From Candidatus Melainabacteria bacterium RIFCSPLOWO2_02_FULL_35_15 (lineage in GTDB: Bacteria; Cyanobacteriota; Vampirovibrionia; 2-02-FULL-35-15), in NCBI GenBank assembly GCA_001784585.1, contig MFRN01000035.1:42925-106924 (forward strand): DNA of 64,000 nt, read 5' to 3'. Positions 4,945-31,004 of this stretch are shown here, piece by piece; position 1 is the stretch's first letter, and each line of letters begins with the position of its first letter. Under the pieces are notes generated by a model. That model did not search any database. It was given only the letters and a program-made list of their open reading frames with translations, and had not been told where the DNA came from. The position numbers and the translations under genes were made by a program.

Positions 4945-5366
4945 ATGAAGTTCCTCAAGCAGTTACGTTTTATTTATACATTTTATGCCAGGTTATTGGT
5001 AAGGAAAAATCTTGAAGGGATTTCTCCGGTATAAAGAAATGAGGAAAGTCCGGGCTCCATAGGGCTGGTTGCTTCGTAATGCGAAGTGCACGTAAGTGTG
5101 AGGAAAGTGCCACAGAAATGAAGACCGCCCCGTGAGATAATTTCATATCTCACGGGGTAAGGGTGCAACGGTGAGGTAAGAGCTCACCAGATTTTGCGGT
5201 GACGCAAGAACTAGGTAAACCCCGCTGAAGGTGCAAGGATAAGGTATAGGATTGAATCACAGTGGCCCGCTGCTCAATTCTGCCAAAGCCGCTTGAGGGT
5301 ATTGGTGACAATACTCCCAGATAGATAACTGCATAAACAAAACCCGGCTTATGAGGAACTTCATTC
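4945..5366 (+). ncRNA. rnpB: RNase P RNA, bacterial type A (M1 RNA)
   Basis: Universal P4 motifs GAGGAAAGTCCGGGCTCCATAGGGC (5041-5065) and ACAAAACCCGGCTTA (5336-5351) are present. A 13-bp P1 stem is formed by ATGAAGTTCCTCA (4945-4957) and TGAGGAACTTCAT (5352-5364), followed by a T-tract. Internal GNRA-type and conserved regions include GTAAGAGCTCACCAG. Length is about 420 nt. Confidence 0.9.
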
Positions 5367-5420
5367 TTTTTAATAACTTCAGGTACTCCATCAGCAAACC
5401 GGGCAGTCTATATAAAGGTA

Positions 5421-8268: not shown

Positions 8269-9303
8269 ATGCCATGGCATGTCTCAACAAATATGGGAGT
8301 AACTAAAGATATGCCATGGCATGTCTCAAATATGGGAGCAACTGTGACAGAAAAAAAAGAATCAATTGCAACAAGAGTTGCCTATGGAAAAGCACTCCTT
8401 GAGCTTGGGAAAGAAAATCCAAACATTGTAGTACTTGATGCAGATCTTTCCGGTTCTACGCAAACCAAATTCTTTGCGAAGGAATTTCCGGAAAGATTTT
8501 TTAATATGGGAATTGCAGAGCAAAACATGATAGGTGTTGCAGCCGGGTTATCAAGTACTGGCAAGATTCCTTTTGCAAGCAGCTTTGCAATGTTTGCATG
8601 TGGTCGTGCCTGGGAGTTTGTCAGAAACTCTGTTTGTCACAATATGTTTAATGTAAAAATTTGTGCAACACATGCAGGATTAACTGTAGGTGAAGATGGC
8701 GGCTCTCATCAGATTATTGAAGATCTGGCTATTATGAGGGCAATACCGCACATGACAGTTATTGTTCCTGCTGACGCTACTGAAGCAAAACTTGCTACAA
8801 GAGCTATTGCCAGCTTTTTTGGTCCTGTTTATATGAGACTTGGAAGATCAAATGTGCCGGTTTTATTTGATGAAAAAAAATTTGAGTTTAAAATCGGAAA
8901 AGCACAAATTATAAAAAGCGGGATTGATGTTTCTGTTTTTGCCTGCGGAGTAATGGTGAGCAGAGCTCTCTGGGCAGCTGAAATTTTGCAAAATGAAGGA
9001 ATAAGTACAGAGATTATAAATGTTTCTACTATTAAACCTCTTGATAAAGAAACTATTTTAGCCAGTGTACAAAAAACAGGTTGTGCAGTTACATGCGAAG
9101 AACATAATATCCATGGGGGACTTGGTGATGCTATTGCCTCTGTACTTACTGAAAATCATCCTATACCTATGAAAAAAACTGGTGTTATGGATCAATTCGG
9201 GCAAAGCGGAAAAAGTGATGAACTTCTTGTTCATTATGGATTAACTAAAGAAAAAATTGCTGAGGCTGCCAGAGAAGTTATTAAAAGGAAGTTAATAAAT
9301 TAG
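8269..9303 (+). CDS. Transketolase, C-terminal subunit (split transketolase). The start is ambiguous because of a 42-bp tandem duplication at the 5' end.
   Basis: Conserved motifs ATRVAYGKALLELG...VVLDADLSGST and the pyrimidine-binding/C-terminal domains are present. An RBS AAGGAGA lies upstream of ATG 8269. Alternative starts occur at 8311 and 8332. Confidence 0.85.
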   Translation: MPWHVSTNMGVTKDMPWHVSNMGATVTEKKESIATRVAYGKALLELGKENPNIVVLDADLSGSTQTKFFAKEFPERFFNMGIAEQNMIGVAAGLSSTGKIPFASSFAMFACGRAWEFVRNSVCHNMFNVKICATHAGLTVGEDGGSHQIIEDLAIMRAIPHMTVIVPADATEAKLATRAIASFFGPVYMRLGRSNVPVLFDEKKFEFKIGKAQIIKSGIDVSVFACGVMVSRALWAAEILQNEGISTEIINVSTIKPLDKETILASVQKTGCAVTCEEHNIHGGLGDAIASVLTENHPIPMKKTGVMDQFGQSGKSDELLVHYGLTKEKIAEAAREVIKRKLIN

Positions 9304-9362: not shown

Positions 9363-9623
9363 ATGAATAAACGGATCGGAAAACAAAAAGCAAAAGAAAC
9401 ACTCCCGAAGCTCCTTGATATGGTTAATAAAGGGCTTGGACCAATTGAAATCATTGATCAAAAAAAAGATGAAGCAGTTGCATATCTGATTTCACCGGAA
9501 GATTATAAAAAGAAATCCAGGAAAAAATCGTACGCTGGATTTTTAAAAGGAAAGCTTATAGTTTCTCCTGATTTTGATGAACCAGACTGGGAACTCATTA
9601 GATTAATTGAGAAATCAGAATGA
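9363..9623 (+). CDS. Phd/YefM-family type II antitoxin
   Basis: 86 aa. The pattern IGKQKAKETLPKLLDMVNKGLGPIEIIDQKKDEAVAYLISPEDY matches the Phd/YefM fold consensus. It overlaps the downstream PIN gene by 4 bp. Confidence 0.65.
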   Translation: MNKRIGKQKAKETLPKLLDMVNKGLGPIEIIDQKKDEAVAYLISPEDYKKKSRKKSYAGFLKGKLIVSPDFDEPDWELIRLIEKSE

Positions 9624-10039
9624 AGCTTTTTGTAATAGACACAAATATTTATATAGACTACATGCTGAAAGGAACAAATTGCTTTTCAAAATTAGTAAAC
9701 CATTTCTTTAAATTACTTGAGGTAAAAGAATGTATATTTTATGTGCCTGCAATATGCTTTTGGGAAATCAGCAGAAAAATTATTACCGGCAAATTAACCA
9801 TGCAAAAAAAATCTCCAGAGGAAGCATTATGGTTAATGCAAAAACCATTAGATAATGTGGAGGATTTTAGGGATTTACCGCTTACCCGGAAAGCAGCAGC
9901 TTTAGCATCTGGTTTTAGAGCTAAGCTGCCAGATCCATTTGATCAATTAATAGTTGCTTCGGCACTGGATGCAAATTTGCCTTTAATTACAAAAGATCAA
10001 AACATGCAAAAATCAGGATTAATACAAACTGTTTGGTAG
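9620..10039 (+). CDS. vapC: PIN-domain ribonuclease toxin (VapC-like)
   Basis: 139 aa. The N-terminus FVIDTNIYIDY carries the first acidic residue. Further acidic residues occur in FWEIS, DPFDQLIVASA and ITKDQ at typical PIN spacing. It is translationally coupled to the antitoxin. Confidence 0.75.
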   Translation: MKLFVIDTNIYIDYMLKGTNCFSKLVNHFFKLLEVKECIFYVPAICFWEISRKIITGKLTMQKKSPEEALWLMQKPLDNVEDFRDLPLTRKAAALASGFRAKLPDPFDQLIVASALDANLPLITKDQNMQKSGLIQTVW

Positions 10040-10040
10040 T

Positions 10041-10108
10041 ATGGAAAAAGTAAAGAAAAAATTGCTGAGGCTGCAAAAGAAATGATTAGAAGAAAACTTA
10101 AAGATTAA
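10041..10108 (+). pseudogene. Displaced, diverged duplicate of the transketolase C-subunit 3' end (gene remnant)
   Basis: Sequence atggaaaaagtaaagaaaaaattgctgaggctgcaaaagaaatgattagaagaaaacttaaagattaa resembles 9237-9303 (ggattaactaaagaaaaaattgctgaggctgccagagaagttattaaaaggaagttaataaattag). A 23-nt exact core aaagaaaaaattgctgaggctgc is shared. It ends with an in-frame stop at 10106-10108. Confidence 0.7.
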
Positions 10109-10252
10109 ATTTCTTTTCAGGGAAAACTCTAAATATTCTCCTCCTTTTAAATGAATTCTTGAGGCTTTTTGATATCTCTGTATTTATACGGGTAAAAAAG
10201 AATTGATATAAGAAATAAAAAAAGAGGGGGTTGGCTAAATATTTAAAATCTT

Positions 10253-11533
10253 TTGCCAATAAAAAATAATATGCCAGAAGGAATAAGTCCATTAAGTGGA
10301 AGAGTCGAAGCAAGATTTGACAGAGTTTTAGAAAACAGAGCAAGAGACATAAGTTCTGGACGTAGATTTACACCCCTTGGAGGAAATTATTATCAGACAT
10401 ATGAATATGATCCGGATGTTAATGGACAATATTTAAGAAGAGAAAATGGACCGTATATTTACAACACAGGTACAGGTAGAGGAAATAGATATATTCCCGG
10501 ACATGACATAAATTCTGACGGTACATTTACAAGAACATATTTATTACCCAGATCGCAGGCACCTGCTATCTCATACTTAAGCAGGCAGGATGCAATCAGG
10601 CATTTAAGTTTGCTTGAAAATCCAGATGGTACTTTTCGCAGACATGGATTTGTAGGAACTTATACAACAAGAAATGACGGAACAGTTTTCTATGGAGGTG
10701 GTTACCATCCAAATAATGGCAGACGGGTAGATCTTCCTCCACAAACTTATATTAATGGCAGATGGTATGAAGGTGATATAAGACCAGGTTCTATTCCGCA
10801 GCCTGGAGTTGGAGAAGTACAACCACGACCTGGAGCCGGAGGAGTACAACCGCAGCCTGGAGTCGGCGGAGTACAGCCACGACCTGGAGCCGGAGGAGTA
10901 CAACCGCAGCCTGGAGTTGGAAGAATACAACCGCAGCTGCCAAGAATAGAAGTACCACCAATAACAGCAGGTACAAACGGAAGGATAGCTTTACCTCCTG
11001 GAGTACGACTAACAAGAATAACAGCACCTGGAGCAACAGCATGGACAGAACCAGGTTCATATGAATATCAAGGTGGATTTAAAATGAATAAAAATGGCAG
11101 CTATACATTTGCTCCTGGAGCAGATCCATATCGGGCAAGCGGAACATATACATTGAGAACAAATGATGGAAGAGAGTTTCAATTACAGGTAAACTCACCA
11201 CCGCCAATTTCACAACCGCTACCGGTGGCTTCACCATCACGGTTTGACATTCATCAGGATCTTCGTGCATATCTGAGAGCTCTTGCAGGGGATTTTGGAG
11301 AAGAGCAGGGAGAAATAGAATTTATTCTTTCACAACTGGAGCAGGCAGCTACTCCGGGAGATAATGATCTTACAGAATTAATTCGTAGAAGAGATCCTTC
11401 ATTAAGTCAGGTAGTTTTGAATTTAGAACAGCTTGCAGGAATTCATACCAGACGCGGAGAAGCAGATCTGGCAGATCGAGCTAAGCAGCTTGCACAGTTG
11501 ATCCGGCCTTATGTACCAATACTGCCAGCATGA
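10253..11533 (+). CDS. Hypothetical protein with Gly/Pro-rich 26-aa tandem repeats (GVQPQPGVGGVQPRPGAG) and a GC-richer Ala/Leu/Arg-rich C-terminal region
   Basis: ORF of 426 aa with a 78-bp DNA repeat at about 10801-10940. No signal peptide. No recognisable catalytic motif. Confidence 0.55.
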   Translation: MPIKNNMPEGISPLSGRVEARFDRVLENRARDISSGRRFTPLGGNYYQTYEYDPDVNGQYLRRENGPYIYNTGTGRGNRYIPGHDINSDGTFTRTYLLPRSQAPAISYLSRQDAIRHLSLLENPDGTFRRHGFVGTYTTRNDGTVFYGGGYHPNNGRRVDLPPQTYINGRWYEGDIRPGSIPQPGVGEVQPRPGAGGVQPQPGVGGVQPRPGAGGVQPQPGVGRIQPQLPRIEVPPITAGTNGRIALPPGVRLTRITAPGATAWTEPGSYEYQGGFKMNKNGSYTFAPGADPYRASGTYTLRTNDGREFQLQVNSPPPISQPLPVASPSRFDIHQDLRAYLRALAGDFGEEQGEIEFILSQLEQAATPGDNDLTELIRRRDPSLSQVVLNLEQLAGIHTRRGEADLADRAKQLAQLIRPYVPILPA

Positions 11534-11540
11534 CCAAATA

Positions 11541-12074
11541 CTAATCAAATTTTATGCTCACCTTATGTTTTTCAGCCCAGGCTTTAAAATTGTCTAGGTT
11601 ATCATTAAATTGACCATCAAAAATTCCCCTGTTTATATCTTCTATTAATTTCTGTGCCTCTTGTTTATTTCGTGGTGTGTCAAGATTAAGCAGTGCAAGC
11701 AGTTCTTTATAAACATTCACTAATTTTTTTGCAGCAGTAGCAGGATCAGAAAAAGCATCTGTTGGGAGTTGCAAATGAAATTGCTTTGTTTGAAGTTCTG
11801 AAAAAAATCGTACATAATCTTTTACTAAGTTTTTGAACGGAGCAAAAGTCCTTTTTAATTCTGCTATTTCTCTTTTACTCGCAAGTTGTGCCAAAACCGG
11901 TCCTGTAACTTCTCTATTATCCAGAAATAACAAAAATCGTTCTTTAGCAGGCTCTCCGTCCTCTATCAAAGCTTGTTGAGCAAAATGATTGGCAAGAGTC
12001 CGTCTGTCTTCTACTCTTACAGCGTTATTGTTTGTAATTCTTTTGATTGCTGATAGTAATATAGGGGAAATCAT
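11541..12074 (-). CDS. Hypothetical protein
   Basis: 177-aa ORF, convergent with the 10253 gene. No recognisable motif. Confidence 0.5.
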   Translation of the reverse strand: MISPILLSAIKRITNNNAVRVEDRRTLANHFAQQALIEDGEPAKERFLLFLDNREVTGPVLAQLASKREIAELKRTFAPFKNLVKDYVRFFSELQTKQFHLQLPTDAFSDPATAAKKLVNVYKELLALLNLDTPRNKQEAQKLIEDINRGIFDGQFNDNLDNFKAWAEKHKVSIKFD

Positions 12075-12146
12075 AGTGTTTAATTTAATGTTAAAGGAAA
12101 GATGAGTATAAAATCAACCGGCAAAAATTAAAATATAATAAAATTT

Positions 12147-13340
12147 ATGAACAATTTCTTAATAAACCAAACACAAACTTTTAGATTTACGGAAGAACAG
12201 GAATTATTAAGAAAAACAATTCGTGAAGTAGCAGAAGAAAACTTTAAGGAAAAAGCCAGAGAAACAGATAAAACTCATAAATTTCCAAGAGAAAATTTTA
12301 ACTTGCTTGCAAAACTTGGAATTACAGGACTTATAATTCCTGAGAAATACGGCGGGAGCGAACTGGATTATATTTCATATGTAATAGCTATTAAAGAAAT
12401 TGCCAGAGTATGTGCTGTAACCAGTGTTATTCTGGGTGTGCATTCATCACTTTGTTCAATGCCGATTGTTAAATTTGGTTCGGAATGTTTAAAAGAAAAA
12501 TATCTTAGAAAACTTGCCTGCGGAGAACTGCTTGGGGCGTATTGTTTATCTGAACCGGGAAGCGGATCTGATGCAGCAGCAATGCAGACAAAAGCAGAAG
12601 ATAAAGGAAGTTATTTTATATTAAATGGGACAAAAGCATGGATTACAAATGGTTCTGAAGCAGATGTTTATATTGTTTTTGCTCAAACAAATCCTGATTT
12701 GAAGCATAAAGGAATCACTGCTTTTATTTTAGAAAAAAATATACAGGGTGTGTCTTTTGGAAAGCTGGAAGATAAGTTAGGCATAAGAGCAAGTGCGACA
12801 TGTCAGATGCACCTGGATAATGTAAAAGTGCCAGAAGAAAATTTGCTTGGCAATATCGGTGACGGTTTTAAAATTGCAATGTCGACACTGGACAGAGGAA
12901 GGATTGGAATTGCTGCGCAGGCATTAGGCATTGCACAGGCCAGTTATGACCTCGCCAGCTCATATGCAAAAGCCAGAGAAGCGTTTGGGCAAAAAATAAT
13001 TAACTTCCAGGCTATACAGTTTATGCTTGTTGAAATCGCTACTGAAATTGAAGCAGGTCAGCTTCTTACCTGTCAGGCAGCAAACATGTATGATCTGGGT
13101 TTGAAATTTACACGTCAGGCGGCAGAAGCAAAACTATTTTGTAGTGAGCTTGCGTCAAAGGCTGCAAATAAAGCAGTGCAGATTTTAGGCGGTTATGGTT
13201 ATACGACAGAATATGATGCCCAGCGTTACTTAAGAGATGCAAAAATTACTGAGATTTATGAAGGAACTTCTGAGATTCAGAGAATAGTTATTGCAGAGAA
13301 TATAATTAAAACGGGACTTACGCATATGTCATCTAACTAA
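12147..13340 (+). CDS. Acyl-CoA dehydrogenase (short-chain/butyryl-CoA dehydrogenase-like)
   Basis: 397 aa. Motifs YCLSEPGSGSDAAAM and the C-terminal TEIYEGTSEIQR are typical of the ACAD family. Confidence 0.85.
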   Translation: MNNFLINQTQTFRFTEEQELLRKTIREVAEENFKEKARETDKTHKFPRENFNLLAKLGITGLIIPEKYGGSELDYISYVIAIKEIARVCAVTSVILGVHSSLCSMPIVKFGSECLKEKYLRKLACGELLGAYCLSEPGSGSDAAAMQTKAEDKGSYFILNGTKAWITNGSEADVYIVFAQTNPDLKHKGITAFILEKNIQGVSFGKLEDKLGIRASATCQMHLDNVKVPEENLLGNIGDGFKIAMSTLDRGRIGIAAQALGIAQASYDLASSYAKAREAFGQKIINFQAIQFMLVEIATEIEAGQLLTCQAANMYDLGLKFTRQAAEAKLFCSELASKAANKAVQILGGYGYTTEYDAQRYLRDAKITEIYEGTSEIQRIVIAENIIKTGLTHMSSN

Positions 13341-13352
13341 ACTGGCGCGTCA

Positions 13353-13413
13353 GTGGCAATGTATTATTTGCAACATCCGAGTGTAAGCGAGGTGAGCAAA
13401 AATACATTGCCAC
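13353..13413. terminator. Long hairpin between convergent genes (putative bidirectional terminator)
   Basis: Perfect 13-bp inverted repeat GTGGCAATGTATT (13353-13365) / AATACATTGCCAC (13401-13413) with a 35-nt loop. It lies between the acyl-CoA dehydrogenase stop (13340) and the hydrolase stop (13466). Confidence 0.4.
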
Positions 13414-13465
13414 GGTTAAACAGCCAGTTTTAAATATGCTAACTTTGTGTAAGTCCTGTAAAGAA

Positions 13466-14281
13466 CTAGGATGAAAATTTAGAAGACAGAAATAGTTCTC
13501 TTAAGGTGTCATAGTATTCATCTGTGAAATATTGTGTAAGACTGTTATGTCCTGCACCATTGAGTATAATTAACTTTTTAGGTTCATTTGCAGCATCATA
13601 TAATTCATATGCCCATTTTACAGGCGCCATTCTGTCAGCACTTCCATGGCTTATTAATACAGGCACATTAATTTTTTTAATTAGATCCTTTAAATTAAAC
13701 AAATCATTTTTAACGACAAAATTTGGAATTAACGGGAAATGATAATGTGCCAGCTCTGTAAATGTTGTGAAAGAACTTTGAATTACTACAGGACCTGTTT
13801 TAACCTTTCTGGCAAGTTCAAGAGCAGGAGCACCTCCCATAGAGCGTCCGTACAATGAGATATCTTCTGGTTTGTAACCTCTATTTTTGATGAGATAGTC
13901 ATACATTGCAAAAGCATCTAAAACAATTCCCTGAAAAGTCGGACTTCCTGTACTTTTTCCATAACCTCTATAATCTGCAATTAAAAAATTTATCGGAATC
14001 TTTTCCTGAATTCGAAGCGGTGCTGAATACCATTTACTTACATTAAAGTCATTACCGTGGAAAAAAATTGCTACTTTGTCTGAATGTTTATTTGCTATTA
14101 AAAGATATCCATGTAATGTTTCACCGTCAAAAGTTTTTATATAAACCTCTTCGTGATTAACACGGGAAAGTTGGTTCAGTGAATATAGTTTTTTACTTGG
14201 AGACAATAAAAGATAGTCTCGCAGGATATGCTGTAAATTCCAGAAGCTGGAGGGTGGTATTTTCCTTATTGTAAAGGTCAT
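13466..14281 (-). CDS. Alpha/beta-hydrolase fold protein
   Basis: 271 aa. A GxSxG nucleophile elbow (GRSMGG) is present, with downstream SHGSAD and GAGHN providing the acid and His residues. Confidence 0.7.
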   Translation of the reverse strand: MTFTIRKIPPSSFWNLQHILRDYLLLSPSKKLYSLNQLSRVNHEEVYIKTFDGETLHGYLLIANKHSDKVAIFFHGNDFNVSKWYSAPLRIQEKIPINFLIADYRGYGKSTGSPTFQGIVLDAFAMYDYLIKNRGYKPEDISLYGRSMGGAPALELARKVKTGPVVIQSSFTTFTELAHYHFPLIPNFVVKNDLFNLKDLIKKINVPVLISHGSADRMAPVKWAYELYDAANEPKKLIILNGAGHNSLTQYFTDEYYDTLRELFLSSKFSS

Positions 14282-14353
14282 AATCTGGCTGACTTGTTTT
14301 AATTACATGACATTTTACTATATACTTGTATGTTCAGAGAAAAATCAGTATAA

Positions 14354-15403
14354 ATGCAGTCAAACATTCAAAATTTTCAAACTACTACTGAAATGTCTTA
14401 TGTAAATAATGATCAGGTGAAAAATAAAGCTGAATTATTGTTTTCAAAGCTGAAAGAATATTTAAAATCAATTAAGCCGGATGAGTCTTTGTTTTTTAAC
14501 AAAGGTGAAACAGTGTATATTCCGGATATTCATGGAGATTTTGTACATTTAATAGTTACATTATATAAGCATGGTGTTTCAGACTCTGATTTAAGTTTAA
14601 AGAGAGATTTCAAATATATTTTCTTAGGTGATTTTTATGACAGGGCTCCGGATGCAGATGTAATTGATTTTTGGTTGAATCTCCAGATAAAAAATAGTCT
14701 TGAGATTTATAGATTAGCCGGAAATCATGAAATGGCTTTTCTGGAAAGAAATGAAAAAGGTTACCCTGTAATATTTCCTTCTCAGGATTCTATAATAGAT
14801 GCTTCCAGTAATTTTAGAATTACAGGAGATTTAATAAAGTCTGTTGCAGAAGGAAATATTCTGGCAGCATATTCTGATGAAAATATATTATATGTCCACA
14901 GCTACATAATTAACGATGACTACAAAGAATTAGGATTAGAAACCAATTCAAATGTTTTTGATTTTGCAACTGCTTTAAACCAGCGATTTAAACAACATGG
15001 ACAGAATGCATACAATCTTTTTTTAAATTGTAAAAAAGAAAAAAAATATAACTGGAAAGAAATAATCAAACCGTTTAAAGATGATCCTTTGTTTGATATT
15101 TACAAAGGGAAAAATGACATAAATACTTCTTTTGTCTGGCGAAGGACAGGCTTACCGGCTTTAAATATTTATCCGGCAGAGCTTGATGTGGAAATTCCTG
15201 ATGATGTTTATCAGATAGTCGGACATACACCTGTTTTTTTATTTAATATTCCACAGAATCAGCATTTTACATGTCCTTTTGTTTTATCATCAAAAACTGG
15301 TACAGGAAAAATTCAGTTTAGCGATGTAGGAATCGGATATTACTACAAGAAAGATGATTTTGAAAGACCGGAAGTTGTGATTAAGAGATTAATGGCTACC
15401 TAA
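14354..15403 (+). CDS. PPP-family metallophosphoesterase (Ser/Thr phosphatase/ApaH-like)
   Basis: 349 aa. Signature motifs PDIHGD, LGDFYDRAP (GDxxDRG) and AGNHE (GNHE) are present in canonical order. Confidence 0.75.
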   Translation: MQSNIQNFQTTTEMSYVNNDQVKNKAELLFSKLKEYLKSIKPDESLFFNKGETVYIPDIHGDFVHLIVTLYKHGVSDSDLSLKRDFKYIFLGDFYDRAPDADVIDFWLNLQIKNSLEIYRLAGNHEMAFLERNEKGYPVIFPSQDSIIDASSNFRITGDLIKSVAEGNILAAYSDENILYVHSYIINDDYKELGLETNSNVFDFATALNQRFKQHGQNAYNLFLNCKKEKKYNWKEIIKPFKDDPLFDIYKGKNDINTSFVWRRTGLPALNIYPAELDVEIPDDVYQIVGHTPVFLFNIPQNQHFTCPFVLSSKTGTGKIQFSDVGIGYYYKKDDFERPEVVIKRLMAT

Positions 15404-15762
15404 AAATAATTCCATTTTATCTGAAAACTAAGCAGCAAAGCCTTTTCAGCTTGTTTCATTTTTTCGTCTGATATCTTGCCTAATCTTTTAGCAAATCTGG
15501 CTATATCTGTTGTTTTGATTTGATTAAAAAGTGCCATTGATTTATTTCTCAAGCCACCTTCTCCTTTTTCTAATACAACTGCAAAAGGCCAGCTTTCTTT
15601 AATAGTACTTGTTACTGGTGCAATCATTGTAGTCTGTAGTGTTTCATTTATCAAATCACTTTGCATAACAAGGCATGGCCTGGTCTTTTTAATTTCTTTA
15701 CCAATTGCAGGATCTAAATTCACTATCCAGATCTCGCCACGTTTTGGTTTTATATCTGCCAC
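15400..15762 (-). CDS. mazF: MazF/PemK-family endoribonuclease toxin
   Basis: 120 aa. RGEIWIVNLDPAIGKEIKKTRPCLVMQSD...IAPVTS matches the MazF/PemK consensus. Confidence 0.8.
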   Translation of the reverse strand: MADIKPKRGEIWIVNLDPAIGKEIKKTRPCLVMQSDLINETLQTTMIAPVTSTIKESWPFAVVLEKGEGGLRNKSMALFNQIKTTDIARFAKRLGKISDEKMKQAEKALLLSFQIKWNYF

Positions 15763-15984
15763 CTATTCGTCTTCCAGTGTAATATCCCAGTCTTTCAGCT
15801 CGTCCCAAAGTTCTTTACATTCTTTCATGTCACAAACAGCCTTTTTAATTATCTTAGCTTCTTCTTCTTCTTTTGCTTTTCTAAGAGCTTCTGCTACAAA
15901 GGCTGCTTGATTTTCTTTGGATTGCAAATAAAGTACTAAGTCAACAGGTAAAGTAAAAGTTGCTTTTTTTGAATTTGAGTTCAT
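15763..15984 (-). CDS. Cognate antitoxin of the MazF-like toxin (small acidic C-terminus, RHH/MazE-like)
   Basis: 73 aa, immediately upstream and abutting the toxin gene. The C-terminus is acidic (ELWDELKDWDITLEDE). An upstream region at 16020-16060 carries the palindrome ACCATAT-taaag-ATATGGT and an ATATGGTTA direct repeat (putative operator). Confidence 0.6.
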   Translation of the reverse strand: MNSNSKKATFTLPVDLVLYLQSKENQAAFVAEALRKAKEEEEAKIIKKAVCDMKECKELWDELKDWDITLEDE

Positions 15985-16116
15985 ATTGATTCTGTCCTGG
16001 TTTTAAAACAATAATACTATACCATATTAAAGATATGGTTAAACTATATGGTTAATAATCTATTTAAAGGTATCCCTATAGTTTCTAACAATAAACCAGG
16101 TTGTGATTTTTTTAAT

Positions 16117-17169
16117 CTAAACACGGGTCATAGTCTTAATCTCATCACCAAAGAAAACTTTAGTTTGGTTATAAAGTTCTTTATCAACTGTTTTTAATGT
16201 ACCTACTGCATCTTTTACATCTACATCGACAATTTTATTTCCCTGAAGAGATACCATTCTTCCAAATTTTTTCTGGTGAACAAGATCCACTGCTTTTAAT
16301 CCATATCTTGTACCAAGTACCCTGTCAAAAGCAGTGGGAGAGCCGCCTCTTTGAATATGCCCGAGTGACATTGCTCGGGTTTCAAAATCTGTTTTTTCTT
16401 CAAGAGCCTTTGCAAGCCTGTCTCCAATCCCGCCAAGTTTTACATGTCCAAAAGCATCTTTTTCCTGACCTTTTAAAATTTCTTCATCTGAAAATTTTGC
16501 ACCTTCTGCAATTACAATTACCGCATAGCCTGCTTCTTTTTTCCTGAGTTTAATTGCTTCTGCAACCTTATTAATATCAAATGCTTCTTCAGGAATTAAA
16601 ATATAATCAGCAGCACCTGCAATTCCTCCCATAGTTGCTATCCATCCTGCATGACGGCCCATTACTTCAAGCACAAGAACACGATCATGCGACTTGGCTG
16701 TGGTGTGCAGCCTGTCTACTGCATCACAGACTATTGAAAGCGCAGTGTCAAAACCAAAAGTCTGATCTGTCGCATTCAGGTCATTATCAATTGTTTTTGG
16801 CACGCAAATAATAGGAGCCTTAAAATCCTTAAAGAGCTTATAAGCTACACCACAGGTATCTTCTCCGCCAACGGCAATCAATGCCTCTATTTTATTTAAC
16901 TTTAAGTTATCAATTACTTTTTGAGGGCCGCCCTCTGTTTTATAAGGGTTTGTACGGGAGCTTTTTATGATAGTCCCGCCCTGATTAAAAATTCCTTCAG
17001 CATCAGAAAGTGCAAGCGGCATTATTAAATTATTTATCGGACCTTTCCAGCCGTATAAATATCCAAAAACCTCATCCTCATATTTTTTAATTGCCTGAAA
17101 TAAAACTGCTCTGATAACGTTATTAAGCCCTGGACAATCACCACCCCCGGTTAAAATTGCTAAACGCAT
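16117..17169 (-). CDS. pfkA: 6-phosphofructokinase (ATP- or PPi-dependent)
   Basis: 350 aa. MRLAILTGGGDCPGLNNVIRAV, PKTIDNDL and MGRHAGW motifs are present. Confidence 0.85.
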   Translation of the reverse strand: MRLAILTGGGDCPGLNNVIRAVLFQAIKKYEDEVFGYLYGWKGPINNLIMPLALSDAEGIFNQGGTIIKSSRTNPYKTEGGPQKVIDNLKLNKIEALIAVGGEDTCGVAYKLFKDFKAPIICVPKTIDNDLNATDQTFGFDTALSIVCDAVDRLHTTAKSHDRVLVLEVMGRHAGWIATMGGIAGAADYILIPEEAFDINKVAEAIKLRKKEAGYAVIVIAEGAKFSDEEILKGQEKDAFGHVKLGGIGDRLAKALEEKTDFETRAMSLGHIQRGGSPTAFDRVLGTRYGLKAVDLVHQKKFGRMVSLQGNKIVDVDVKDAVGTLKTVDKELYNQTKVFFGDEIKTMTRV

Positions 17170-17302
17170 AAAACATCCTCCTTAAAACAAACGTTATATA
17201 TCATATCAAACCTATATGGGTTTTCTATGTTTCCCTTCTTAACCAGTTAACAATATAATATAGGGTACAATGTAGTTAGCTGTAGTTAATCGTAGTAAAA
17301 TC

Positions 17303-17719
17303 ATGGCAAAATCAAATCCAATAAATATCAGATTAGAATTACCGGTCCTGAATGAAATAAAAAATCTGGCCAAAGCTCTGCACCTTCCTTTGAGTATGGT
17401 GCTTAATAGGCTTATTGCTGAAGCTCTTAGAATGTTTCAGTGCCCGGGTATTATTTTTACAAATAGTCCTTCCGGCAGAAGGAGAGCTACAGTAGCTGGT
17501 TCCGGGCTTGACGTATGGGAAATGATAAGTATTTGTAAAAGTTATAACAAAAATTATAAGAAAGTTCTTAAAGATTATCCTTTAACTGAAATACAATTAA
17601 ATGCAGCTTTGAATTATTATGAGCATTATAAAAATGAGATTGATCAGGAAGTAAAACAAAATGATGAAGCTGAAGAGTTTGCAAGTTCAAGTAAATTAGT
17701 TACTAAGTTCAGTATTTAA
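17303..17719 (+). CDS. DUF433-family protein (putative antitoxin) with an N-terminal RHH-like segment
   Basis: 138 aa. PGIIFTNSPSGRRRATVAGSGLDVWEMI...YPLTEIQLNAALNYY matches the DUF433 consensus. Confidence 0.6.
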   Translation: MAKSNPINIRLELPVLNEIKNLAKALHLPLSMVLNRLIAEALRMFQCPGIIFTNSPSGRRRATVAGSGLDVWEMISICKSYNKNYKKVLKDYPLTEIQLNAALNYYEHYKNEIDQEVKQNDEAEEFASSSKLVTKFSI

Positions 17720-17721
17720 TC

Positions 17722-18075
17722 ATGAAGCTCTACCTTGACGAAAACATTTCACCACTTGTTGCTAAAAAACTTAGAGAAAAAGGATTTGATGTAATATCAG
17801 TGCACGAAAACAATACCCGGTCAAAAAGTGATATTGAACAGTTTGAACTTGCCATAAGAGAAAAAAGGGCCATAGTTACATATGATGTTATAGATTTTAC
17901 AGACTTAGCAAAAGGATATATTGCAAAGGTAAAACCGCATTCCGGGATAATTTTAGTAAGTAATAAAACCATTCCGCAGGGAAATTCGAAAAAACTTGCC
18001 GTTTCACTGGAAAAATTATTACACCATAAAGAAAAAGATTTTTTAGAGAACAGAATTGTGTATTTAACAAAATAA
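17722..18075 (+). CDS. DUF5615-family protein (Mut7-C/PIN-like putative toxin) paired with DUF433
   Basis: 117 aa. The N-terminus MKLYLDENISPLVAKKLREKGFDVISV matches DUF5615. The gene starts 3 bp after the DUF433 stop. Confidence 0.6.
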   Translation: MKLYLDENISPLVAKKLREKGFDVISVHENNTRSKSDIEQFELAIREKRAIVTYDVIDFTDLAKGYIAKVKPHSGIILVSNKTIPQGNSKKLAVSLEKLLHHKEKDFLENRIVYLTK

Positions 18076-19356
18076 GGTGTTGTCAAGCAGCCACTTCCAG
18101 AGAGGAATAAAACTGATTTTTGTCTTTTTTACTGTAACTTTTTTTTCGGTATCCCAGGTAATAATAGAAAGGTTTTTGCAATTAAGTTCTTCGCTGGCTT
18201 CTAAGAGAGAATTAATTTCTCTTTTTTCAGTATAAGGATCTTTAACATCATATGAAACCTGAATTAACTCTTTGATTTTTATACCTTTTTTCAACACAAA
18301 ATCAACTTCTTTTTGGTTTCTTGTTTTGTAATAAAAGAGATTCATATTAAGTTTACAACCTCTGTTTAAAAGTTCTATGAAGATTAGATTTTCAATAAGC
18401 TTGCCATAATTTTTAGAAGACTGAAATGCCTTTGCTTCAATAAAACCATTGTCAATCAGATAAATTTTCTTTGAGGCATTTATCTGTTCTTTTACTTTGT
18501 TTGAATATCTGTTCAGAGTAAAAGAAATATATGCTTCGCTTAAATATGATAGATAATTTTGAGCAGTATGTGTACTGTTAAAACCAAGAATATTTTTCAG
18601 CTTTGTATAACTTAACTCCTGACAAAAGTTTGATGCAGTATAGACGGACAGATCATACATTTTTTGTGTAAATCTTACATTGTATCTTTTAACTATATCT
18701 TTCAATAAAATAGCTTCATATAAAGTGTTTAAATATTGTTTTGGTTCAAAGTTTTTCAGAGTAACTTCAGGAAATCCTCCATGCAGGTTGTATTCACTTA
18801 AATAATTTAATATTTCACCTTTAATTTCAGGCAAATTAAATTCCTTTTTTGCAACAGAAACCTTTTTTGCAGTTAAAAATTCTCTAAAGCTGAATGGAAA
18901 TATTTCAACTGAAATATATCTTCCGGTTAATGATGTAGATAATTCTTTACTTAGCAGCTTTGCATTTGATCCGGTAAGAACGAGATTATAGCCCCTTCTC
19001 TGCAGCTTGTTTACAAACAGCTCCCAGTTTTTCAGGTTCTGGATTTCATCAAAAAAAATATATTTAGTCTTTCCATAAACTTCAACAAGACTTTTAATAA
19101 TTTCATCTGTATCAGTTACATCTAAAAGTTTTTCATCGTCAAAATTCAAATATGCAAAATTTGCATCTTCAAGTAAAAGAAAAGAGAAAACGGATTTCCC
19201 TGCTCTTCTTGGTCCTGTAATAACTTTAATCAAATCTGAAGAAAGATTTTTTTTAAACCCGGTGATTTTTTCCCGTTTTATAAAATCCTTTAAGAGTGTT
19301 TGTTCTTTTTCTTTTTTTTGTTGAAGTATGATTTCTTGTAGCATAGTATACTGCAC
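18064..19356 (-). CDS. AAA+ superfamily ATPase with C-terminal DUF4143 (COG1373-like)
   Basis: 430 aa. Walker A ITGPRRAGKS and Walker B IFFDEIQ are present. The domain organisation is typical of the ATPase/DUF4143 family. Confidence 0.7.
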   Translation of the reverse strand: MQYTMLQEIILQQKKEKEQTLLKDFIKREKITGFKKNLSSDLIKVITGPRRAGKSVFSFLLLEDANFAYLNFDDEKLLDVTDTDEIIKSLVEVYGKTKYIFFDEIQNLKNWELFVNKLQRRGYNLVLTGSNAKLLSKELSTSLTGRYISVEIFPFSFREFLTAKKVSVAKKEFNLPEIKGEILNYLSEYNLHGGFPEVTLKNFEPKQYLNTLYEAILLKDIVKRYNVRFTQKMYDLSVYTASNFCQELSYTKLKNILGFNSTHTAQNYLSYLSEAYISFTLNRYSNKVKEQINASKKIYLIDNGFIEAKAFQSSKNYGKLIENLIFIELLNRGCKLNMNLFYYKTRNQKEVDFVLKKGIKIKELIQVSYDVKDPYTEKREINSLLEASEELNCKNLSIITWDTEKKVTVKKTKISFIPLWKWLLDNTLFC

Positions 19357-20286: not shown

Positions 20287-20317
20287 TGTTGCCAACATTA
20301 AAAAAAATTTATCTTTC
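20287..20317. repeat. 31-bp direct repeat, copy 1, flanking ORF6N cassette 1
   Basis: tgttgccaacattaaaaaaaatttatctttc is identical to 20926-20956. It contains the palindrome AATGTTG-c-CAACATT. Confidence 0.85.
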
Positions 20318-20324
20318 GATCAAT

Positions 20325-20831
20325 TTAAAAACCAATTCTTTTTCTTGATTTTACTTCAGGTTCTGTCAAACGTTTTATTGCCTCAAATACTATTTGAAAT
20401 TGGTTATCGTATTTTTTCTCTATCTCTTCAATCTTTTTTCTTAGGTCTTTATTACTTTCAATCATTTCCCGAAGCTTTGTGAAGGTTCTCATTATCTGAA
20501 TATTTACATTAATAGCCATTTCGCTGTTTAAAACAGTTGAGAGCATAGCAACACCCTGCTCGGTGAAAGCATATGGTAATGAAGTGGAATGTTTTAGTCT
20601 CTTGAACCGATCACAATTTGTGATCAGTTCATCCCTTTCATGTATAGTAAGCTGAAACATGAAATCTTCAGGGAAACGCTTAATATTTCTTTTAACTGAT
20701 TGATTTAAAGTTCTGGTTTCAACTTCATATAGGTTTGCCAGATCTACATCGATCATGACTTTTTTACCTCGTATTAAGAGAATCCTTTTTTCAATTTTTT
20801 CAACTGGTATTAAAGTTGTATTCATATTCAA
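20325..20831 (-). CDS. ORF6N-domain protein (phage/mobile-element-associated DNA-binding family)
   Basis: 168 aa. The VMIDVDLANLYEVETRTLNQSVKRNIKRFPEDFMFQLT and YAFTEQGVAMLS motifs are present. It is paralogous to 62474..63010. Confidence 0.7.
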   Translation of the reverse strand: MNMNTTLIPVEKIEKRILLIRGKKVMIDVDLANLYEVETRTLNQSVKRNIKRFPEDFMFQLTIHERDELITNCDRFKRLKHSTSLPYAFTEQGVAMLSTVLNSEMAINVNIQIMRTFTKLREMIESNKDLRKKIEEIEKKYDNQFQIVFEAIKRLTEPEVKSRKRIGF

Positions 20832-20908
20832 TTACTGATGCCTCTCTAGAGATAGCCACAATTTGTAACCAGTCCATTTTAGTCATAGTTAGATATTTAT
20901 GCAACTTT

Positions 20909-20923
20909 GTAACCCACGGTTAC
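20909..20923. promoter_or_regulatory. Palindromic putative operator GTAACC-CAC-GGTTAC upstream of the ORF6N gene. Imperfect copies lie at 20960-20974 and 20990-21004, and a half-site at 20865-20870.
   Basis: Perfect inverted hexamers GTAACC/GGTTAC separated by 3 nt. The same motif occurs upstream of the second ORF6N paralog at 63030-63044. Confidence 0.5.
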
Positions 20924-20925
20924 AT

Positions 20926-20956
20926 TGTTGCCAACATTAAAAAAAATTTATCTTTC
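20926..20956. repeat. 31-bp direct repeat, copy 2, flanking ORF6N cassette 1
   Basis: Identical to 20287-20317. Confidence 0.85.
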
Positions 20957-21085
20957 AATGTAACCTGCGGTATCAAAAGTATAACGAATGTAACTCTGGG
21001 TATCATATTACGAATTGCGAAAAGATCAAACATTCAGTAAATTATTTATTCACTTACGAGACAGTCCCCTGAAAGAAAAACCAAA

Positions 21086-29849: not shown

Positions 29850-31004
29850 CTATTTAAAAATCTTATTTATTCCATCTTGCCAATAATAGCATTGTATACC
29901 ATCAATTAACTTAGATTTTTTATCTTTGGATAAAACAAGCGCTTCAGATTTAGAAATGTCATTTATAAATTGCTTTAAAGTTTTAACTGCTCTATCATCA
30001 ATATTATCACTAGATTTTATCTCAATAAGCAGAGTTGTTTTACCAGGTCTCTCAACAATAAGATCAATTTCAGCATGATCTTTTGTTAGCAAGTATGAGA
30101 GTTTAAAATCCTTTTTAAAATATAGATTTAGTCTGTAAATTTCAGAAATAACCCAGTGTTCAAAAGATTTTCCATAAGCGTAAGTGTTTGGTAAGACGGT
30201 TTGAGTTAAAGTATTACATAGTGCTCTTTTAACTCCAGAATCAAAAAAGTAAAATTTAGGACTTTGACGTTGCTGTTTTCTGATAGACTTATGATAAGGT
30301 TCTAACAAAAACCCAAGTAATGTATCTTCTAAAATTTGATAGTAAGATTGGACTGTTTTAGTATCAGCTCCAACATCGCGTGCAATGTTAGTAAAATTAA
30401 CAATTTCACAATTGGATTGTGCTGAAATTTCTAAAAATTTTCTAAAAGGATCTAACTTTCTAATTATATGCTCTGCCCATATTTCTTCCTTTAAATAGGT
30501 TTGAGCATAGCTTCGCAGATATTCTTGCTTTTCTTTATCTGCTTTCAAATGAAAAATTTCTGGTAAACTACCCCAGTTTAAACAATGATTTAAATCAAAT
30601 TCTTTCTTTAGCTCAAGTGAGGTCATGGGATGCATGTAATTTACAAAAGCTCTTCCTGCTAATAAATTTGCACTTCCATATTTTAATTTTCTTGCACTTG
30701 AGCCGGTTAAAGCAAACCTTATATTTGTTGTTTCAATAAGGTGATGAACAATATCTAAAAGTTTAGGTACTTTTTGAACTTCATCGATAACAACCCAAGA
30801 TATCTTTTCCTTTGACATAATTTGTTCTTTAAAACTATTAGGTCGCTTTGAAAGTTCATCTTCTAGCTGTGGATCCAGCAAATCAAACCATAAAGTATTT
30901 TTTTTTGCAAAGAGCTGTTTTAAGAAGGTGGATTTTCCAGTGCCTCTTGCTCCAAAAAGAAAGAAGCTTCTTGATAAAGTTGGTTTGATTAGTCGTTGGA
31001 ACAT
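29850..31004 (-). CDS. AAA+ superfamily ATPase with DUF4143 (paralog of 18064..19356)
   Basis: 384 aa. Walker A LFGARGTGKSTF and Walker B VVIDEVQ are present. Domain order matches the other copy. Confidence 0.7.
   Translation of the reverse strand: MFQRLIKPTLSRSFFLFGARGTGKSTFLKQLFAKKNTLWFDLLDPQLEDELSKRPNSFKEQIMSKEKISWVVIDEVQKVPKLLDIVHHLIETTNIRFALTGSSARKLKYGSANLLAGRAFVNYMHPMTSLELKKEFDLNHCLNWGSLPEIFHLKADKEKQEYLRSYAQTYLKEEIWAEHIIRKLDPFRKFLEISAQSNCEIVNFTNIARDVGADTKTVQSYYQILEDTLLGFLLEPYHKSIRKQQRQSPKFYFFDSGVKRALCNTLTQTVLPNTYAYGKSFEHWVISEIYRLNLYFKKDFKLSYLLTKDHAEIDLIVERPGKTTLLIEIKSSDNIDDRAVKTLKQFINDISKSEALVLSKDKKSKLIDGIQCYYWQDGINKIFK

Follow-up and report, generated by a model that had tools for sequence, protein, structure and literature searches.

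Accessory genes, among them three toxin-antitoxin pairs, at five junctions of a packed housekeeping block in a Melainabacteria genome

The DNA studied here is a 64-kb stretch of a groundwater Melainabacteria metagenome-assembled genome (MAG), hereafter called the window, in which three type II toxin-antitoxin (TA) pairs, a Phd-like/PIN pair, a MazEF pair and a DUF433/DUF5615 pair, are interleaved with housekeeping genes. The segment from 9.3 to 21 kb is most probably a conserved and tightly packed housekeeping block in which accessory cargo has accumulated at five junctions, and is then better described as an old accessory or defence islet than as an active landing pad. It offers a small-scale picture of TA and candidate defence genes wedged between and inside coupled housekeeping operons, in a little-studied, non-photosynthetic sister lineage of the cyanobacteria, and preserves one insertion scar that can be dated.

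Accessory cargo at five consecutive junctions of a conserved gene block

A first-pass annotation of the stretch had proposed a synteny comparison with related genomes, and this comparison, in which each relative's locus was seen with 10 kb on either side, showed that the modules are variable. In L002, L003, L090 and L091, and in part in L092 and L093, the gene order is trpS-tktN-tktC-ACAD-phosphatase-hydrolase-PFK-hyp191-hyp548, where ACAD stands for acyl-CoA dehydrogenase. None of these six related species carries any of the three TA pairs, and their core genes abut or overlap (tktC/ACAD, 0-17 bp; PFK/hydrolase, 0-5 bp), with the convergent hydrolase and phosphatase genes overlapping by 4-20 bp. 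The window departs from this compact block at five consecutive junctions, as follows.

tktC/ACAD: Phd-like/PIN pair and genes for 426-aa and 177-aa proteins, 2.8 kb
ACAD/phosphatase: the hydrolase gene, relocated
phosphatase/PFK: MazEF pair
PFK/hyp191: DUF433/DUF5615 pair and the PDC-S01 ATPase gene
hyp191/hyp548: ORF6N/PDC-S05 gene

The outer junctions (trpS/tktN, tktN/tktC and hyp548/next gene) are untouched in all relatives, and the 426-aa, 177-aa, ATPase and ORF6N genes are missing from the loci of the same relatives (L002, L003, L090 and L091, and the partial L092 and L093). Our map of open reading frames (ORFs) reproduced all gene coordinates of the first-pass annotation exactly, and its labels for the ACAD, the hydrolase (of the alpha/beta type) and PFK were confirmed, the last being 79-90% identical to PFK of related Melainabacteria/Caenarcanales MAGs. 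Naming the 349-aa protein a PPP phosphatase was reasonable as well, since it carries a DxH...GDxxDR...GNHE signature at residues 58-126 and matches a PHROG family of NinI-like Ser/Thr phosphatases (E 1.2e-5), though it has no Pfam match. The relocated gene is the following.

13466-14281, minus strand: alpha/beta hydrolase, located between phosphatase and PFK in the relatives and between ACAD and phosphatase in the window

It has kept its strand, and its product is unusually divergent, with 48-54% identity to all orthologues, as against 75% between the orthologues of L001 and L090.

The block varies in other lineages too. Across nine lineages, the junctions tktC/ACAD, hydrolase/PFK and PFK/hyp191 each hold two to four different cargos. 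A second PFK paralogue, 45% identical, lies directly 3' of PFK in L003 (11152-12243) and L092 (1676-2764), at the junction that is occupied by MazEF in the window. Slots of the block also hold a gene for a 260-aa secreted protein in L091, a 244-aa ORF in L003, and genes for a 920-aa protein and a pentapeptide-repeat protein in L170. The PFK/hyp191 slot of L002 contains a 66-aa orphan ORF (9702-9902) with a weak match to a CopG antitoxin (BrnA-like, E 0.004), which may be the remnant of another TA module at that junction.

Within the species the arrangement is stable. The window has counterparts in nine contigs from different metagenomes, with identities of more than 99.8% and unchanged gene order, and in all of these near-identical contigs the three TA pairs are fixed and intact; the changes in the pairs amount to one synonymous substitution and one I57V replacement, both in DUF5615. 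Pfam and PHROG scans of the ORFs between 6.3 and 22.7 kb revealed no integrase or transposase domain, and no tRNA genes were found in the 64-kb window.

Composition of the three toxin-antitoxin pairs

Judged by the families of their products, each pair would be a conventional type II TA module, in which a gene for a small DNA-binding antitoxin is translationally coupled to that of a ribonuclease-type toxin (PIN, MazF or the PIN-like DUF5615). The toxins would arrest growth by cleaving RNA once the labile antitoxin is lost. These TA families are already known, and the window adds no new kind of system. The six genes are listed below.

9363-9623, plus strand: antitoxin of the first pair, 86 aa, N-terminus weakly Phd/YefM-like, C-terminus VapB/DUF2281-like
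9620-10039, plus strand: PIN-domain (VapC-type) toxin of the first pair, 139 aa, by Pfam PIN
15763-15984, minus strand: antitoxin of the second pair, 73 aa, MazE-like by position and a weak NCBIfam profile match
15400-15762, minus strand: MazF/PemK endoribonuclease toxin of the second pair, 120 aa, by Pfam PemK_toxin
17303-17719, plus strand: antitoxin of the third pair, 138 aa, with a ribbon-helix-helix (RHH)-like N-terminus and a DUF433/COG2442 domain, by profile and AlphaFold2 (AF2) model
17722-18075, plus strand: DUF5615 (PIN-like) predicted toxin of the third pair, 117 aa, by Pfam DUF5615

For the first pair, labeled Phd/PIN in the first-pass annotation, the toxin half of the name held, and the antitoxin half is a weaker assignment. 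The PIN protein scored 34.2 bits against PF01850 (cut-off 23.6), and its acidic residues D7, E49, D105, D108 and D126 are invariant among 13 homologues. The antitoxin reached 20.9 bits (E 3.2e-4) against Pfam PhdYeFM, under the cut-off of 29.8, and gave further matches to Pfam DUF2281 (E 2.7e-3) and to NCBIfam TA_VapB (E 5.8e-6, likewise under the cut-off). A four-sequence profile of this antitoxin found no solved relative in the PDB, and its AF2 model, built from the single sequence, was unusable with a predicted local distance difference test (pLDDT) score of 45. The two genes overlap by 4 bp (ATGA). This overlap is kept in L176-L178, where the 86-aa antitoxin gene is always located 5' of the PIN gene, and where the pair lies between gltX and hisI (L176), adjoins hisI (L178), or lies beside a glycosyltransferase gene (L177). 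The pair thus resembles VapBC in that a small upstream antitoxin gene overlaps a PIN gene of about 140 codons by 4 bp, in that the canonical acidic residues (D7, E49, D105/D108 and D126) are kept, and in that it moves between loci as a unit, whereas it differs in its antitoxin, which stays under every family threshold, and in that sequence searches find no solved relative.

In the MazE/MazF label of the second pair, the toxin half is likewise the firmer one. The MazF protein scored 105 bits against PF02452 (PemK_toxin), aligned full-length with M. tuberculosis MazF9 (PDB 6kyt, E 8.6e-16) and B. subtilis EndoA, and also matched Kid. Its antitoxin gene lies directly upstream and abuts mazF, as in known MazEF/PemIK systems, but differs from these in being only faintly MazE-like, with 24.6 bits against NCBIfam TA_MazE_antitoxin (cut-off 65) and no Pfam or PDB match. 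From its sequence, this antitoxin looks RHH-like rather than AbrB-like. MazEF is found at the identical junction in L001, with 83% identity for MazF and 77% for MazE, and the spacer between MazE and PFK is the same in window and L001 at 43 of 45 nt.

The third pair had been named DUF433/DUF5615, and both parts of this name stood. The toxin scored 74.5 bits against Pfam DUF5615 and 32.5 bits against PIN_10, and residues D6, E7, D37, D55 and D58 are invariant in four orthologues. In a direct profile scan the antitoxin matched DUF433 only marginally, with an E-value of 0.038, but a profile of 20 homologues matched the DUF433 structure 2GA1 in the PDB (E 1.7e-7), and the homologues P0015 and P0019 carry PF04255. 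The AF2 model (pLDDT 85) had 2GA1 as its best Foldseek match with probability 1.0, and its N-terminal ~45 residues matched the RHH proteins CopG, Arc and CdbA. Because profile and model both lead to 2GA1 and RHH proteins match the N-terminus, the antitoxin is, according to the predicted structure, an RHH-DUF433 fusion. PDB sequence searches with the PIN toxin, the DUF5615 toxin, the ATPase and the MazE-like and Phd-like proteins gave no match.

In L170, L173, L175 and L183, the DUF5615 gene is always 3' of the DUF433 gene. The pair has the identical PFK-proximal position in L170 (71% and 74% identical, with PFK at 88%), it is found between an acetyltransferase and a beta-eliminating lyase gene in L173, and downstream of rplQ-DHO_dh in L175 and L183. 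Pairs of the PIN-COG2442/DUF433 family were predicted as TA modules in 2009 by Makarova, Wolf and Koonin, with cyanobacteria and Chloroflexi as the groups richest in them (PMC2701414); many copies are known from Synechocystis (PMC4963859). Like these, the window pair has a DUF433 antitoxin gene 5' of a PIN-like nuclease gene, occurs in at least three chromosomal contexts and is typical of the cyanobacterial lineage. The family is, to our knowledge, still only predicted. The window pair differs in that its toxin is of the DUF5615 branch among the PIN-like domains and in that its antitoxin has an extra N-terminal RHH-like domain, where the 2009 paper described winged helix-turn-helix fusions (PMC2701414).

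An insertion footprint at the end of tktC

The Phd-like/PIN cassette is bracketed by a direct repeat of 68 nt, 79% identical, with a spacing of 805 nt. Its two copies are the following.

9235-9303, plus strand: left copy, the functional tktC 3' end, from the repeat search
10040-10108, plus strand: right copy, a remnant tktC 3' end that encodes YGKSKEKIAEAAKEMIRRKLKD followed by a stop codon and begins directly after the PIN stop codon

The remnant copy matches the tktC 3' ends of the relatives (23/23 in L090, 28/31 in L003 and 27/30 in L002). Since the bracketing repeat consists of the functional tktC end and a remnant that matches the relatives, the pair appears to have entered at the very end of tktC with duplication of the gene end. 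The two copies have diverged by 21%, which also speaks for an old insertion.

Convincing direct repeats were absent from the flanks of MazEF, of DUF433/DUF5615 with its ATPase, and of a second ATPase gene in the window, as well as from those of the homologous cassettes in L170, L173 and L175-L178. An alignment of the PFK-hyp191 junction across relatives, made for the insertion point, was uninformative, as only a shared terminator 3' of hyp191 could be aligned.

The footprint, together with the recurrence of pairs in unrelated contexts, bears out the claim of the first-pass annotation that the modules are compact insertions next to core genes. Each of the Phd-like/PIN and DUF433/DUF5615 pairs was found in several contexts, and both are therefore self-contained units that have been located at several sites in the chromosome.

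Age and history of the insertions

The insertions are old, not ongoing, and their turnover is slow, because they are present species-wide in the nine contigs, are partly common to sister species, and have flanks with only ~80% identity between species. Where a pair is shared with a sister species, as for MazEF in L001 and DUF433/DUF5615 in L170, it has diverged to a degree similar to that of the flanking genes. The first-pass annotation had suggested that the region is a preferred landing area for small selfish cassettes. What stands of this is that the stretch is recurrently variable in the family; a statistical preference over the rest of the genome is not demonstrated by one window (P of about 0.05), and the insertions are ancient.

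Such shared positions also fit a different history, in which MazEF, DUF433/DUF5615 and possibly Phd-like/PIN already occupied these junctions in the common ancestor of these Melainabacteria and have since been deleted from most of its descendants, which would make this a region of loss. MazEF and DUF433/DUF5615 are found at identical junctions in L001 and L170, respectively, with 70-83% amino acid identity, where PFK has 88% and other neighbours have 50-56%; conservation extends to the MazE-PFK spacer, PFK shows no recombination tract, and the pairs are fixed within the species. In a neighbour-joining tree of PFK, a weak tree of a single gene, L170 and L091 fall with the window and L090 falls with L001, and therefore MazEF would need several losses or more than one gain. 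Under the loss history this weak single-gene tree implies at least three independent and precise MazEF losses, each restoring abutting or overlapping core genes. In addition, Phd-like/PIN has an insertion footprint and is located elsewhere in relatives, and the junctions of the block carry unrelated cargo in other lineages. Taken as an account of the whole region, we consider loss rather unlikely.

The clustering could also be a matter of chance, in a genome that is rich in TA modules, like many others related to cyanobacteria, and in which three modules happen to lie within 8 kb. Dozens of type II TA loci are known in Synechocystis (PMC4963859), the region was chosen because it looked dense, and under random placement a cluster of three pairs spanning 8 kb in a 64-kb window has a P of only about 0.04-0.05, uncorrected for this post-hoc choice. 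However, chance alone is hard to reconcile with five consecutive junctions that are altered while the neighbouring ones are untouched in all relatives, and with block junctions that vary independently in other lineages, and we regard it as improbable.

The preferred explanation is accumulation of cargo in a packed block, and several observations weigh against it. The P value just given is one of them. Two antitoxin family labels, Phd and MazE, are under threshold, and only one of the three TA cassettes, Phd-like/PIN, has a footprint. For two of the three pairs, a history in which the pair was ancestral and was lost repeatedly is just as good. Sliding-window nucleotide identity of PFK with all relatives revealed no recombination tract beside MazEF, and the homologous-recombination route is without direct support because PFK identity is uniform at ~80%. 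Import of MazEF by homologous recombination from an L001-like donor was considered and rejected, as this PFK identity is flat to all relatives. The 3' end of PFK that adjoins MazE is closer to L090 (87%) than to L001 (75%).

Relation to known insertion hotspots

If cargo accumulated at these junctions, the cassettes would have arrived without a resident integrase or transposase, most likely when imported DNA recombined by an illegitimate or homology-assisted route, which has been proposed for hotspots without mobile elements. They would then have been retained through addiction and/or an anti-phage benefit, giving an islet that is variable over evolutionary time. Neisseria 'minimal mobile elements' are comparable, as they present differing cargo between conserved core genes without an integrase. 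Transferred genes are known to concentrate in few core-gene intervals, which in many cases contain no mobile elements (Oliveira et al. 2017, PMC5635113). The window resembles such horizontal gene transfer hotspots in that conserved core genes of relatives enclose different cargo without integrase or transposase, and it resembles both these and defence islands in that the cargo consists mostly of TA and defence-type genes. It differs from the hotspots (PMC5635113) in that the cargo, instead of filling one interval, is distributed over five adjacent junctions within what seem to be operons, and in its slow turnover, with species-fixed cargo and no flanking recombination signal. An integrase-mediated island or integron cassette would be different again, given that the window has no tRNA gene and the ORFs at 6.3-22.7 kb no integrase or transposase. 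The main value of the stretch lies in its annotated examples, namely the RHH-DUF433/DUF5615 pair and the copies of PDC-S01 and PDC-S05, and small-cassette insertion without mobility genes is a possible lead.

The ATPase, the ORF6N gene and other inserted genes

Beyond what the first-pass annotation had noted, the same stretch holds the ORF6N gene at 20325-20831, two inserted genes at 10253-12074 and the relocated hydrolase gene. The accessory genes outside the TA pairs are the following.

18064-19356, minus strand: ATPase with AAA_14 and DUF4143 domains, PADLOC candidate PDC-S01, by Pfam and PADLOC
20325-20831, minus strand: ORF6N gene between hyp191 and hyp548, PADLOC candidate PDC-S05, by Pfam and PADLOC
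10253-11533, plus strand: inserted gene, 426 aa, containing Pro/Gly-rich repeats of 9 aa, no match in Pfam, PADLOC or PHROG
11541-12074, minus strand: inserted gene, 177 aa, no family match

The assignment of the DUF4143 AAA+ ATPase made in the first-pass annotation was borne out by Pfam (AAA_14, 121.9 bits; DUF4143, 86.5 bits), with scores that, like those of the PIN, MazF and DUF5615 domains, are far over the Pfam thresholds, and the protein matched PADLOC PDC-S01 (PDLC04787) with 366 bits. The literature describes PDC-S01 as a very common, unvalidated fusion of an ATPase with a PD-(D/E)xK domain (PMC12988326). In two of the nine contigs (L081 and L084), the gene is split into ORFs of 103 and 256 aa by a 1-bp deletion at 19058. 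The ATPase gene is thus in decay in some of the population, with the neighbouring TA pair still intact. The ORF6N protein scored 110 bits against Pfam ORF6N and 208 bits against PADLOC PDC-S05, with a PHROG anti-repressor match. Both families have second copies in the window, AAA_14+DUF4143 at 29850-31004 and ORF6N at 62474-63010, the two ORF6N genes being 52% identical to each other. The second PDC-S01 ATPase is a protein of 384 aa, and its gene (29850-31004) is flanked by unrelated genes.

The convergent DUF5615 and ATPase genes do share 12 bp (18064-18075), as had been pointed out before, and this overlap is unremarkable because convergent overlaps of 4-20 bp are the norm in the block. One could nevertheless read the DUF433/DUF5615 pair and the overlapping ATPase as a single three-gene system, as the pair adjoins an AAA_14-DUF4143 ATPase in two genomic contexts, the window and L175. 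However, the ATPases of these two are 37% identical compared with 70% for the antitoxins, their orientation differs, L170 and L173 carry the pair without an ATPase, and in some strains the ATPase decays while the pair remains intact. Moreover, ATPases of this family are frequent here (two copies in 64 kb), so that a further adjacency in one of three or four additional contexts is expected by chance with a probability of ~18% by our own estimate. A three-gene system is therefore hardly credible, and we treated the adjacency and the 12-bp overlap as incidental.

The inserted genes can also be viewed as a functional defence islet, in which the TA pairs, PDC-S01 and PDC-S05 would be co-located as anti-phage genes of the abortive-infection type, which gather in defence islands, and not merely as selfish addiction cassettes. 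This would not exclude accumulation of cargo at the junctions. Matches to the PADLOC models are strong, the L175 DUF433/DUF5615 pair adjoins an AAA_14-DUF4143 gene, L179 combines AAA_14-DUF4143, small ORFs and ORF6N, and in L180 a HEPN/NTP_transf_2 module adjoins ORF6N. In one study, E. coli was protected against T7, T5 and T4 by a representative of PDC-S05, whereas the protective systems did not include the PDC-S01 representative tested in the same work (10.1101/2024.09.26.614923). Most PDCs have yet to be validated (PMC12988326), and some of the population has a frameshift in the ATPase gene. Thus, a defence function of the islet as a whole is possible, if somewhat doubtful. In their strong hidden Markov model matches, and as single-gene cassettes beside TA modules, the window copies conform to PDC-S01 and PDC-S05, with the difference that the PDC-S01 copy is pseudogenized in part of the population.

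The 426-aa gene next to the Phd-like/PIN pair has a GC content of 0.45, compared with about 0.33-0.39 in its flanks. It contains a 27-nt tandem repeat at 10796-10957 that encodes PG(V/A)GGVQP(Q/R) units. The copy number of this repeat varies among near-identical strains, L081 and L083 having a deletion of 27 bp, and it is a point at which assemblies break.

Repeat-bracketed ORF6N cassettes

Both ORF6N genes of the window lie in a cassette of ~635 bp. The direct repeats of the first cassette, found in the repeat search, are located as follows.

20287-20320, no strand: left 34-nt direct repeat of the ORF6N cassette, 97% identical to the right copy, spacing 639 nt
20926-20959, no strand: right 34-nt direct repeat of the ORF6N cassette

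The second cassette (62435-63102) is bracketed by a 34-nt direct repeat as well, 88% identical and with a spacing of 634 nt, which corresponds to the 3' end of the DUF4127 gene beside it. The repeat sequences of the two cassettes are unrelated to each other. Hence, in two of the three repeat-bracketed cassettes of the window, counting the Phd-like/PIN pair, the duplication recreates the 3' end of a neighbouring gene. At other ORF6N loci, L179 has a direct repeat of 17 nt only and L180-L182 have none, for which reason repeat-flanked ORF6N cassettes were rejected as a general rule. The long target duplications (68 nt for Phd-like/PIN and 34 nt for both ORF6N cassettes) might reflect an undescribed, integrase-free mechanism by which cassettes of one or two genes insert without disrupting the target gene, although we consider this very unlikely. 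If it were true, the ~635-bp ORF6N cassettes would be candidates for a minimal mobile unit.

The palindrome TGTAACC-N3-GGTTACA has three matches in the window, compared with 0.16 expected. These sites (20908-20924, 20959-20975 and 63029-63045) are all located upstream of the two ORF6N genes. In L091 (11446-11460) and L092 (511-531), the palindrome lies close to PFK, beside an ORF for a small membrane protein. The idea of an operator or att site specific to ORF6N was rejected, since the palindrome occurs beside this unrelated ORF in L091 and L092 and is absent at the ORF6N loci L179-L182; it may be a shared operator.

Further features of the window and its relatives

Promoter and terminator scans gave no excess over shuffles. 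The ACAD gene of L179 was tried as a marker of the corresponding locus and discarded, as its product is a 36% identical paralogue. The trpS orthologue of L003 (19051-20292) encodes 413 aa and matches window residues 3-113 and 123-336 in two segments ~250 nt apart, which suggests an in-frame insertion in this gene. Outside the housekeeping block, an Rfam search of the window identified a class A RNase P RNA at 5013-5367 (203 bits) and an AdoCbl-II riboswitch at 57879-57953 (48 bits).

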